8,764 nucleotides of DNA, taken from the IMG/VR virus record IMGVR_UViG_2534681663_000019, one strand, 5' to 3'. Position 1 is the stretch's first letter; the number at the start of each line of letters is the position of its first letter. The stretch is from a virus (taxonomy: Duplodnaviria; Heunggongvirae; Uroviricota; Caudoviricetes). Positions 3,987-6,513 of the stretch are shown piece after piece. The notes under the pieces were generated by a model. It saw nothing but the letters and a program-made list of their open reading frames with translations. It was not told the DNA's origin and searched no databases. Made by a program: the position numbers and the translations under genes.

Positions 3987-4178
3987 TTAAAGACCTGCCG
4001 GGATTTCGATATTATCCTGGTGAATAACTTTATCGACCGGGTAACAGTTACCGGGAATTTTCTGTTCGGTTGCTGCAGTCATACACTCCTGCATTGTCCT
4101 GTGAACACTGACTGCAATATCAACTGGCTCTCCGGAAACAAGAAAAACTGTCAGAACAAGTGCAAATGCTGTATTCAT
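3987..4178 (-). CDS. ydfD: Small membrane/lysis-type protein, YdfD-like (63 aa)
   Basis: Start ATG overlaps the dicB stop as ATGA (translational coupling). Hydrophobic N-terminus (MNTAFALVLTVFLVSG). Size and sequence agree with my memory of Qin YdfD. An alternative in-frame ATG lies 9 nt upstream at 4187. Confidence 0.7.
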   Translation of the reverse strand: MNTAFALVLTVFLVSGEPVDIAVSVHRTMQECMTAATEQKIPGNCYPVDKVIHQDNIEIPAGL

Positions 4179-4363
4179 TGCCAGCATCCTTTTTGTATCG
4201 GACGTAAACGGGCCAACATTGAAAGAATGCATATTTTATTTAATAGCTCCCGTTCGTGTTTTCTCTTGTTAATGGCATCTTCAGTAAATACAGGGTTACT
4301 GATAGTGACACCAATTTCAAAACAACCTTCAGACGTATTAACGTTTGGTAATAACGTTTTCAT
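4175..4363 (-). CDS. dicB: Cell-division inhibitor DicB (62 aa)
   Basis: The internal ATG at 4363 is preceded by GAGGA with a 7-nt spacer. The product MKTLLPNVNTSEGCFEIGVTISNPVFTEDAINKRKHERELLNKICILSMLARLRPIQKGCWQ is 62 aa and matches my recollection of E. coli DicB nearly residue for residue. The longer 97-aa ORF in the track has no good RBS and is taken as an upstream extension artefact. Confidence 0.85.
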   Translation of the reverse strand: MKTLLPNVNTSEGCFEIGVTISNPVFTEDAINKRKHERELLNKICILSMLARLRPIQKGCWQ

Positions 4364-4532
4364 TATCGCGTCCTCAACAATGAGTTTTGTGATGCGGTGC
4401 CTGGTGCCTCCAGGTGACGTTAACCAGTTAACAATTAACGCCGGATACAGAGAATCCAACCATAACACTGTTTTTGGTTTTAACTGTTCCGCGTGCGCTC
4501 AGCCGCATTCACCGCATCACAAAATTCACTTT

Positions 4533-4590
4533 AAAAAGGGCGGCAGAGCAGTCACGGAGTAAAACTGATACCGCCAAACGTCACCAGAAA
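4533..4590 (-). ncRNA. dicF: DicF small RNA (53 nt plus U-tail), with its intrinsic terminator
   Basis: Minus strand reads TTTCTGGTGACGTTTGGCGGTATCAGTTTTACTCCGTGACTGCTCTGCCGCCCTTTTT, identical to the DicF sequence as I remember it. It ends in a GC-rich hairpin (GGCGG...GCCGCC) followed by a T5 tract (4533-4537), a Rho-independent terminator. It sits between ydfC and dicB, as in the dicB operon. Confidence 0.8.
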
Positions 4591-4931
4591 ATTGATAACA
4601 GAGGGCGTTGCAGCGGGGTTGTCACTTAAGCGTATGGTCAACCTGACAACCTGGTGTCCTCAACGGGGGAAGGAATAACCCCGCCATACTTACCGCCGCG
4701 CCATTTCGCGGATTGCCACAACCGGAAGCGCACGGTCGACGAAAATTTAACGACAGGCTATCTATGAACCAGCTACCTCGCCGTGCGCTTTCGCGTTATG
4801 GTCTGACTTTTCAGGGAAATATCCTTTCAGTAAACTGTCAGTGCCGGATGCTCACCCGTGTCCGGCGCACGCACTCCACCTCACCCGTGGAGAACTCCTT
4901 AATTACCAACCTTAGCTTCGTTGGTTATCTA

Positions 4932-5150
4932 TTAACGCGGGTATGTAATCATTCTGGCAATGCTTAATGCCGCTGCTTTTTCCAGCCTGGTGATATCCTG
5001 CTCCAGAGCGGACAGATTTTCAGCCTGCTTAGCCCTGGCTTCATTGGCCCATTTCAAATCCTGCGCTGCATTAATTTTCTGGCGCATCCACTCATAAAGT
5101 TCATCATCGGTATAGTCTGGCGCGATGATGACGGGTTCTCGTTTCTGCAT
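4932..5150 (-). CDS. ydfC: YdfC-like small protein (72 aa), predicted coiled coil
   Basis: ATG at 5150 is preceded by AGGAG (5156-5160, minus strand). The product is 72 aa, as for Qin YdfC. Identity by recollection only. Confidence 0.7.
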   Translation of the reverse strand: MQKREPVIIAPDYTDDELYEWMRQKINAAQDLKWANEARAKQAENLSALEQDITRLEKAAALSIARMITYPR

Positions 5151-5221
5151 GTCGGCTCCTTGTGGTTAGCGTTGCCTGCTTTTAACCACGTCAGGCGAGG
5201 TGGTATCCTCTGAGGGGTCTG

Positions 5222-5874: not shown

Positions 5875-6513
5875 TTAAATATCTTGTTGAATTTTAAAGC
5901 ATACGCCCAATATGCAAGATAGATCATCCAGCATAATTGAAGGGTAGCGAGGATTCGTGGGGACTAAAAGAATATCCGGCCCTTCTATCTCCAGTTTACG
6001 AATGACAGGTGTTGTGGTCCCTTTGGGTAAGGCAAGGACAATATTTCCTGGTTGTACGGTTCGATCGGGATCAACAAAAACTGTTGAACCATTTGGGATG
6101 GAAACTCCCCCACCAGATGTTGACATACTGTCACTCTCTAGAACAACTGCAAAGGTATTGACCGGGATTTCTCCGACAAGCTGCACACAAGAGGTTATTG
6201 AGGAATTTTTCATATAATCACTCCAGCTTGCTGCCTGCTGAAGTGATAGTAGCGGAACCGTTTTTATCGGCGGTAAAGATAGATCAAGCGAATCACCTGT
6301 ATTTAACTCTCCTCCATTAAGAAGCCAATTTTCGTTTACTTTCAATATTTTTGCCAGTGAACTTATGTAACGCGAGGACGGCGCTCCTCCACCGTTCATC
6401 CATTGACTTACGGAGCCTTTTGATGCGCCAGTGCCATTGACAAGGTCTTTGCCTTTCAGGTTTAGCGCATGCATACGTTGGGTTATGCGTTCAGATATAG
6501 TTTGCTTGCTCAT
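5875..6513 (-). CDS. Prophage repressor, cI/LexA-like (N-terminal HTH plus C-terminal S24 autopeptidase domain, 212 aa)
   Basis: N-terminal HTH (ISERITQRMHALNLKGKDLVNGTGASKGSVSQWMNG). C-terminal domain has the S24 Ser/Lys dyad context (ESDSMSTSGG ... VIRKLEIEG) and a candidate cleavage region (QQAASW). Diverges from the Cro-like gene. No obvious SD, so possibly leaderless like lambda cI from PRM. Confidence 0.9.
   Translation of the reverse strand: MSKQTISERITQRMHALNLKGKDLVNGTGASKGSVSQWMNGGGAPSSRYISSLAKILKVNENWLLNGGELNTGDSLDLSLPPIKTVPLLSLQQAASWSDYMKNSSITSCVQLVGEIPVNTFAVVLESDSMSTSGGGVSIPNGSTVFVDPDRTVQPGNIVLALPKGTTTPVIRKLEIEGPDILLVPTNPRYPSIMLDDLSCILGVCFKIQQDI

Follow-up and report, generated by a model that had tools for sequence, protein, structure and literature searches.

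The window analysed, an 8,764-nt stretch of the IMG/VR virus record IMGVR_UViG_2534681663_000019 (Caudoviricetes), carries on its minus strand a repressor gene, ydfC, a spacer of about 340 nt, the DicF sRNA and dicB, and 3' of dicB, on the same strand, the genes of a DUF1482/YdfD protein, an 823-aa exonuclease, an excisionase and an integrase (Table 1). The order ydfC - spacer - dicF - dicB is that of K-12; in K-12-type genomes it reads ydfA-ydfB-ydfC-(spacer)-dicB-ydfD, and the closest E. coli genomes annotate ydfC-(spacer)-dicB. Over the 411 nt around the spacer, identity is 99.8% to E. coli SK1144 and 97.3% to K-12-type genomes, and a match to the region is found in 4328 of 5426 complete E. 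coli genomes (∼80%). The K-12-like gene order and the 97.3% identity identify the window, as judged from its sequence, as a Qin-type lambdoid prophage, in which positions 4591-4931 on the minus strand form the untranslated spacer that separates ydfC from dicF in the early-left (dicBF) operon. No minus-strand promoter-like site was found within the spacer. A Rfam scan of the stretch, proposed in the preliminary description as a check, gave no family match at E<=10, RF00039 itself (gathering score 48 bits) included; this family model comprises the 52-nt DicF only, and the spacer adjoins DicF outside it. The spacer is a composite of four parts, at 4802-4931, 4716-4801, 4607-4722 and 4591-4606, which differ in structure and conservation as described below.

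Table 1. Genes of the operon region and predicted RNA elements in and around the ydfC-dicF spacer (positions in the window).
Feature	Positions	Strand	Remarks
S24/HTH repressor	5875-6513	-	upstream; small ORFs next
ydfC	4932-5150	-	directly upstream of the spacer
Hairpin AACCAAC...GUUGGU(U)	4902-4928	-	immediately 3' of the ydfC stop codon
Hairpin CUCCAC-GGGUGAG-GUGGAG	4874-4892	-	first CACGGGUGAG copy; joints at ∼4889 and ∼4871
Hairpin GCCGGA-CACGGGUGAGCA-UCCGGC	4843-4866	-	second CACGGGUGAG copy in the loop
Hairpin CUGAC...GUCAG, inner GGA/UCC stem	4803-4841	-	from the MFE; starts the segment common to more prophages (joint at ∼4811)
Helix A	4716-4801	-	∼19 bp; ∼45-nt loop; extends the earlier 10-bp stem
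Conserved RNA domain	4607-4722	-	116 nt; 5' two-thirds of the 190-nt DicF RNA
P0 (closing helix)	4715-4722/4607-4614	-	
Pa (hairpin)	4707-4711/4696-4700	-	
Hx (encloses Pb)	4692-4695/4652-4655	-	
Pb (hairpin)	4679-4683/4664-4668	-	
Pc (hairpin, 19-nt loop)	4644-4650/4618-4624	-	
Pseudoknot	4684-4689/4632-4637	-	GUAUGG (just 5' of Pb) with CCAUAC (Pc loop)
Linker GCCCUCUGUUAUCAAU	4591-4606	-	A/U-rich; unpaired in the comparative model; from P0 to the DicF 5' end
DicF sRNA with Rho-independent terminator	4533-4590	-	Rfam RF00039 at 4538-4589, 76.7 bits, E=5e-16
Helix B	4510-4524/4385-4399	-	UUUUGUGAUGCGGUG with CACCGCAUCACAAAA; perfect 15-bp inverted repeat, dicF terminator to dicB
DicB	4175-4363	-	downstream of DicF

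All the inverted and direct repeats that the preliminary description had listed were located in the sequence, namely inverted repeats at 4613-4627/4670-4684 (GCGGGGTT.../...AACCCCGC), at 4617-4624/4644-4651 (GGTTGTCA, 19 nt, TGACAACC) and at 4723-4735/4781-4793 (13-nt arms, 92% complementary, 45-nt loop), an exact direct repeat CTCACCCGTG at 4851-4860 and 4880-4889, and GCCGGA/TCCGGC at 4861-4866/4843-4848. The stretch, described there as GC-rich, is so only mildly, with a GC fraction of 0.53 where the window overall has 0.48. Of 200 shuffled sequences, 3 contain a perfect 10-bp inverted repeat and 5 a direct repeat of at least 10 nt. Folding gives z-scores of −1.7 (4591-4931 as a whole), −2.0 (4802-4931) and −0.5 (4605-4727), the last of which marks the stability of the conserved domain as ordinary for its composition. 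Taken singly, the sequence exceeds chance modestly, and the main support for structure comes from comparison with homologues.

The spacer had been said to hold no credible ORF, and this is borne out: the overlapping minus-strand ORFs of at least 20 aa are just 21-31 aa long, and no Shine-Dalgarno sequence was seen before the two of them that were inspected. The Pb segments of the homologues measure 25-31 nt, hence no reading frame is conserved, and indels that are not multiples of three cross every ORF in 4607-4722, for which reason a missed small protein gene is rejected.

The segment 4607-4722 is, on the comparative evidence, a domain of four helices (P0, Pa, Hx and Pc) with covariation, in which Hx encloses Pb and a pseudoknot reaches into the Pc loop. 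Alignments of 35 representatives (A3) and of 72 copies, 65 of them distinct, aligned to the covariance model (A4) were prepared. In A4, 96% of the cells are paired and 12 pairs display compensatory changes, whereas column shuffling gives 5.0±1.3 (none of 500 shuffles attains 12) and controls in which the partners were slid by 1-3 columns give 0-4; since the homologues are related, the cell counts overstate the number of independent compensatory events. The covariation picture obtained with a MAFFT-only alignment agrees with that of A4, RNAalifold run on the MAFFT alignment independently recovers Pa, Hx, Pb and Pc, and all of these together with P0 form in the minimum free energy structure of the processed 5' end alone (4605-4727). 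Five of the six helices, all but Pa, display such compensatory changes; Hx contributes one covarying position, and the pseudoknot one covarying position besides its invariance.

The nature of the exchanges is evident from the variants recorded. Pc is commonly GUUGUCA/UGACAAC and is replaced by GUAACCA/UGGUUAC in Izhakiella, GUUGCCA/UGGCAAC in P1/P7 and AUUGUCA/UGGCAAU in Citrobacter, while its 19-nt loop is nearly invariant. Pb displays at least nine different stem sequences, commonly CGGGG/CCCCG and otherwise, for example, CUGGG/CCCAG, CAGGG/CCCUG, CCAGGUG/CACCUG, CGAGG/CCUCG and CCCGGG/CCCGGG, around a loop that retains UCCUU or UCCUC. The common CGGU/ACCG of Hx becomes CGGC/GCCG in P7, and the common GUAUGG/CCAUAC of the pseudoknot becomes GCAUGG/CCAUGC in P1, with U-G intermediates. 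G-U pairs are frequent on the transcribed strand (in P0, for example, U-G 30 and G-U 35); as the opposite strand would have C-A in their place, it is the transcript that carries the fold. The copies L008, L022, L084 and L177 lack the 5' strand of P0, and closure by P0 is therefore not universal. With the covariance model R1, the copy in the window reaches 169 bits and the 72 homologues 85-175 bits, and the domain is better conserved than the sRNA part that follows it, including the seed of DicF itself.

An outer stem of GCGGGGTT with AACCCCGC, which had been proposed to enclose the hairpin now called Pc, fares differently. The repeat is present, but its pairing finds no support among the homologues: it pairs in 80% of the cells, no better than shuffles (283/500), and displays one compensatory case only (copy L056). 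It shares AAC with the inner hairpin and competes with Pb, whose CGGGG/CCCCG is the supported local hairpin.

The 10-bp long-range stem of the preliminary description is real, and its true extent is the ∼19 bp of helix A. The 5' arm (4781-4801) reads CCAUAAC-G-CG-A-AAGCGCACGG and the 3' arm (4716-4735) CCGUGCGCUU-C-CG-GUUGUGG. The duplex energy is −35.5 kcal mol−1 here, −28 to −35 kcal mol−1 in six other lineages and −16.9 kcal mol−1 in Serratia. Equivalents were found in all seven lambdoid-type lineages examined, the weakest being that of Serratia, and their inner sequences differ (e.g. GAUGAGAGCAU/GUGCUCUCUUC): F1055, Erwinia, Izhakiella and L052 pair CACACAACGAUGAGAGCAU with GUGCUCUCUUCGUUGUGG, and Trabulsiella has a third version. 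It is the pairing of helix A that is conserved and not its sequence, which fits a dedicated RNase III substrate.

GUUGUGG takes part in the seven outer base pairs of helix A and also forms the 5' strand of P0; helix A and P0 are therefore mutually exclusive. The minimum free energy structure of the full spacer forms helix A, and that of the processed RNA (4605-4727) forms P0. In P1 and P7, the domain lies near the promoter Pban and helix A is absent, from which we infer that helix A serves to create a 5' end near the domain where the latter is buried in an operon.

The 5' half of the spacer (4802-4931) presents a different picture. Its four predicted hairpins are confined to Qin-type prophages and scarcely vary; no compensatory change was detected in 24-51 homologues, in which the changes are one-sided and some of them disruptive. 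The GCCGGA/UCCGGC hairpin, for instance, displays one-sided changes only among 50 homologues. This hairpin had been described as flanked by direct repeats; the hairpin is present, but the second copy of CACGGGTGAG lies in its loop and the first in the separate hairpin at 4874-4892. The covariation that the preliminary description had put forward as a check is accordingly found in 4607-4722, by the 12 compensatory pairs, and not in 4802-4931, where there is too little variation. Recurrent mosaic joints lie at ∼4911, 4889, 4871, 4811 and 4722, as seen by BLAST against E. coli genomes, phages and the retrieved loci. Both CACGGGUGAG copies coincide with such joints.

The processing of DicF in K-12 has been studied experimentally. 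According to Ragunathan et al. (2023, bioRxiv 10.1101/2023.04.14.536235), the 190-nt DicF requires RNase III for its 5' end and the 53-nt DicF requires RNase E for its own (both citing Faubladier 1990); both species derive from a polycistronic transcript from dicBp and are stable in stationary phase. In that work an internal promoter was not found, and northern blots with dicF and ydfA probes did not detect a transcript reading through past dicF. A cut by RNase III 3' of DicF, giving a 72-nt form, is also on record, and the ∼137 nt upstream of DicF have been called either a long untranslated region or the 3' UTR of ydfC; the published descriptions of DicF that were covered mention neither a conserved fold nor a pseudoknot nor a presence in other phages. 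The suggestion that the spacer is an RNase III/RNase E precursor was thus correct and had already been established experimentally in K-12, the spacer of which is 97.3% identical.

The predicted elements agree with these steps at the same locus, helix A matching the RNase III step and the linker the RNase E step. When 190 nt are counted back from the terminator, the RNase III cut falls near 4726, in the 3' arm of helix A, a position that derives from the length of the RNA and not from a published gel; a long duplex is indeed present there. Helix B occupies the position of the published RNase III cut for the 72-nt DicF, and its equivalents follow the terminator in other lineages. Long duplexes of distant segments likewise bracket the excised RNA in the lambda N leader, the T7 early RNA and the 16S/23S stems; the difference is that cleavage here is predicted to refold an adjoining conserved domain, from helix A to P0.

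We therefore favour, with a probability of roughly 0.55, a reading in which the spacer is a processing cassette around a conserved folded domain, where an RNase III cut, refolding from helix A to P0 and RNase E cleavage successively lead to the release of DicF. Helix A would form first during transcription and hold GUUGUGG, and RNase III would then cut it near 4726. The GUUGUGG so freed would pair with GCUGCAAC to give P0 and close the 116-nt domain, which would then constitute the 5' body of the stable 190-nt DicF RNA. The closed domain may bury the monophosphorylated 5' end, and would set the lifetime of the long DicF and its rate of conversion to the short one, while RNase E would cut the unpaired linker 3' of the domain and free the 53-nt DicF. 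This linker differs in length and sequence among lineages. Since a protective role leaves the nearly invariant 19-nt loop unexplained, a specific partner bound by the invariant loops is likely.

RNase E likewise frees a short terminator-ended sRNA from a longer precursor in the case of enterobacterial Hfq-dependent sRNAs such as ArcZ, RprA, MicL and those derived from 3' UTRs. To our knowledge, it is the discarded 5' portion of these sRNAs that is less conserved. In the DicF precursor, on the contrary, the 5' portion surpasses all other segments in both conservation and structure.

Segment 4599-4722 recurs by itself in unrelated phages, with identities of 87-89% in cdtI, Ayreon, 2H10 and Stx2c phages, 83% in Salmonella phage F1055, 84% in a record named Actinobacillus phage pPE4, 81% in P7 and 76% in P1. 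When IMG/VR and a single genome for each GTDB species were scanned by pattern, further copies emerged in Escherichia albertii, E. ruysiae, Shigella, Citrobacter, Trabulsiella, Serratia symbiotica, Erwinia tracheiphila and Izhakiella. Seven genera and P1 retain the fold. The domain starts within ∼20-45 nt of the C1-controlled Pban in P1/P7 and lies in the pL leader after cI in cdtI and F1055; in cdtI-type phages it is shortly 3' of the early promoter, whereas here and in K-12 it follows three genes, ∼0.8 kb from the promoter. The 'dicF-like region' annotated in P1 (NC_005856, 68791-68892) overlaps the P1 copy of the domain. This annotation reflects mere sequence similarity, and the likeness is to the domain upstream of DicF and not to DicF, as the terminator hairpin of P1 is another, unrelated one and Rfam detects no DicF there.

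Each of the 38 distinct downstream types carries a hairpin rich in G+C, together with a U-run, at 46-130 nt from Pc. Among these hairpins are DicF, several DicF alleles, long-loop forms (Erwinia, Izhakiella, Serratia and F1055) and the unrelated one of P1, and the linkers between domain and terminator, ∼12 to ∼100 nt long, are unrelated in sequence. The impression that the spacer holds more structure than its processing needs is thus upheld for 4607-4722, with its covarying, pseudoknotted domain in unrelated phages and before different downstream sRNA parts, but not for the rest.

That one domain stands before a wide variety of terminator hairpins and linkers, is retained in P1/P7 where the 3' hairpin is unrelated, and exceeds the following sRNA in conservation could also mean that the domain is itself the functional product, i.e., a trans-acting or protein-binding RNA that RNase III and RNase E would release as a species of ∼135 nt, of which DicF would be one interchangeable 3' passenger. 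The invariant Pc loop and the UCCUU-type Pb loop, kept while the stem changes, may in that case contact a host or phage factor or an mRNA. We consider this unlikely, if deserving of attention: a species of ∼135 nt has not been reported, and the terminator hairpin is never more than 130 nt away, which argues for a function in cis.

A function in cis might instead be exerted on transcription elongation, the domain being a put-like element or terminator modulator that controls read-through to dicB/kil and to the recombination and integration genes. The put sites of HK022 (putL and putR) are protein-independent processive antiterminators of two stems and ∼70 nt; like the domain, put is a cis-encoded, multi-stem RNA of a phage early operon, and the domain is promoter-proximal and upstream of terminators in P1 and cdtI. 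The early-operon sites after Pban and in the pL leader would suit such an element, as would the intrinsic terminator that has to be passed to reach the genes, the absence of an annotated N gene in cdtI, and a size and complexity comparable to those of put. However, the domain is a ∼116-nt four-helix junction with a pseudoknot, contained within a stable processed sRNA, and has no likeness to put in sequence or model. A cmsearch with R1 of HK022 22.0-31.6 kb, which includes the put regions, gave no match at E<=1; the local alignment to putL scores 31, within the range of shuffles (24.4±4.1); no put-like or 'element 2'-like sequence occurs anywhere in the window; and cdtI has no second copy of the domain. 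The K-12 blots cited above detected no transcript reading through dicF, and in Qin-type prophages the domain is removed from the promoter by ∼0.8 kb and three genes.

A lambda-type nut site (boxA CGCUCUUA / UGCUCUUU with boxB) was likewise rejected. In other lineages, the boxA-like GUGCUCUCUUC forms the 3' strand of helix A; it is not conserved in the window, which has GUGCGCUUCC, and no boxB-type hairpin was seen on inspection of the sequence. Control of elongation by the domain is, on balance, quite improbable.

A riboswitch-like sensor of a ligand, an ion or temperature, deciding on the formation of the terminator, would account for the aptamer-like layout, in which a terminator comes after a multi-helix junction that has a pseudoknot and invariant bases in its loops; it is nevertheless very hard to credit, as the linker ranges from ∼12 to ∼100 nt in unrelated sequences, no conserved alternative pairing between domain and terminator was seen on inspection, the hairpin itself makes up the body of an sRNA that acts in trans, and Rfam gives no match. 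A tRNA or tRNA-like structure was rejected on negative ARAGORN and Rfam results, and mimicry of 5S rRNA by the Pc/Pb arms on an alignment whose scores fall within shuffles. That nothing specific is encoded, and that the spacer holds chance hairpins or a missed small protein gene, is suggested by the weak energy z-scores, the 5' half devoid of covariation and the existence of short ORFs, and yet has very little to commend it overall, for it is contradicted for 4607-4801 by the compensatory changes in five of six helices, the fold in seven genera and P1 and the frame-breaking indels, and is possible for 4802-4931.

The precursor role is textbook knowledge, whereas the pseudoknotted domain, the helix A/P0 alternative and the spread among phages appear to be undescribed. 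Full-text literature searches for the loop sequences and for the P1 'dicF-like' RNA returned nothing, the P1 genome paper (Lobocka 2004) and the put survey (King 2011) lying beyond their scope. Alongside the processing cassette, we tentatively propose, as a possibility that falls well short of a probable one, that the domain is a new class of functional phage RNA, ranging from lambdoid prophages of several enterobacterial genera to P1/P7, whose invariant loops would engage RNA polymerase, a ribonuclease or a chaperone and so govern how the cell-division inhibitors of the early operon (DicF, DicB, Kil and Tci) are expressed or matured. Were RNA polymerase the partner, the domain may represent a second antiterminator or terminator modulator, unrelated to put.

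DicF was one of the earliest bacterial sRNAs to be described, and the ∼137 nt that accompany it in the 190-nt form have hitherto been treated as untranslated filler. A covarying domain common to P1 and to prophages of Citrobacter, Serratia, Erwinia, Trabulsiella and Izhakiella points to a selected function in the early operons of temperate phages. It offers a structure that can be mutated, a testable model of refolding from helix A to P0 and a candidate for a new RNA family. If RNA polymerase or RNases are its target, the domain would be relevant to the restraint of toxic prophage genes, dicB and kil among them.

Helix Hx of the conserved RNA domain has a mismatched C-A pair at its base in the window, because position 4652 is A; the corresponding base is G in 63 of 65 distinct homologues. 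On the strand opposite to this domain, hypothetical proteins are annotated in GenBank (cdtI orf40, F1055_0036 and pPE42_gp07; see table). Because the domain displays RNA-type covariation and indels, these are probably spurious gene calls.

Table. Coordinates of the features discussed; L-handles denote homologous loci
Feature	Location	Strand	Source
Perfect 15-bp inverted repeat, UUUUGUGAUGCGGUG / CACCGCAUCACAAAA	window 4385-4399 and 4510-4524	minus	
Second conserved non-coding element, UUUGGUUGUAACACGGCGUAUGGCACAUGCGUCGUUAGCGGUCUGG...	L098 ~9440-9530; L182 1188-1275; L003 (P1) 4786-4876	minus (L098)	
Hypothetical-protein calls over domain	L004 (phage cdtI) 2545-3000; L007 (F1055) 2284-2856; L008 (pPE4 record) 2506-2712	opposite to domain	GenBank
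C4 antisense RNA and IsrK matches	L004 40-228	minus	Rfam
DicF-position terminator hairpins, 50-60-nt loops	L187 (Erwinia) 4680-4755; L188 (Izhakiella) 2530-2610; L007 2650-2715; L185; L174		
Domain remnant	L010 (phage POCJ13) 2501-2531		
Helix A with 64-85-nt loop	L007 2380-2480; L187 4420-4515; L188 2260-2355		
Copies missing helix A	L022 1625-1769; L084 5214-5358; L177 1447-1591		
Motif AAAAGCAGGCACACAACG	window 5161-5186		

Three copies of the domain come from metagenome-assembled genomes labelled Bacillota, Veillonella parvula and Collinsella (L178, L180 and L184); over the regions shown, they match sequences of the P1 type or the E. coli Qin type and most likely represent binning contamination. 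The pPE4 record (PP818812.1 3651-8762) is named as an Actinobacillus pleuropneumoniae phage, an unexpected host; its early region is of enterobacterial type (DicA-like repressor, YdaT, Kil and exodeoxyribonuclease VIII), and its domain copy is 84% identical to that of E. coli. In phage cdtI, two adjacent segments on the pR side, a few kb away from the conserved domain, match Rfam families: C4 antisense RNA at 68.4 bits and IsrK at 60 bits.

A second conserved non-coding element lies directly 3' of a pL-like promoter in cdtI-type phages and one Citrobacter prophage, and its P1 copy is located between tRNA-Ile and ban; the element is absent from the window. Its likeness to HK022 putL (ACGGCG..CAUGCGUCG..AGCGG) is weak, with a score of 33 as compared to 20.9±3.9 for shuffled sequences, the maximum of which was 37.

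Downstream of the dicF terminator, the 15-bp inverted repeat encloses ∼110 nt, from the terminator to the dicB ribosome-binding site, and its position agrees with the published RNase III cut yielding the 72-nt DicF. A counterpart helix 3' of their own terminator is seen in other lineages (CACAACAGAAAAGAGCAUC ... GGUGCUCUUUUCUGUUUUGUGG). The long-looped terminator hairpins at the DicF position share a conserved CAGGAG..GAAGAUAAUGUUCU string resembling a Shine-Dalgarno sequence followed by AUG, which could be an internal stem or the start of a tiny ORF hidden in the hairpin. Of the domain, the N-encoding Stx phage POCJ13 retains no more than the final ∼31 nt, which comprise the 3' strands of Pc and P0, and this remnant precedes a DicF-like terminator and then kil. 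Hairpins of the DicF type therefore do not need the domain in order to persist.

The enlarged helix A loop of F1055, Erwinia and Izhakiella contains the T-loop-like strings GGUUCGAUUCC, GGUUCAAUUCC and GGUCCGUUCAAUUCGGAC; an Rfam scan of the F1055 locus at the gathering threshold gave no match. Helix A is missing from some copies. L022 carries a deletion between direct repeats of CGCGAAA, which in the window lie at 4694-4710 and 4779-4795. In L084 and L177 the motif AAAAGCAGGCACACAACG is fused straight onto hairpin Pa; in the window the same motif lies upstream of ydfC. The existence of copies devoid of helix A, together with the two placements of this motif, suggests that ydfC and the 5' half of the spacer were inserted into an ancestral helix A loop.
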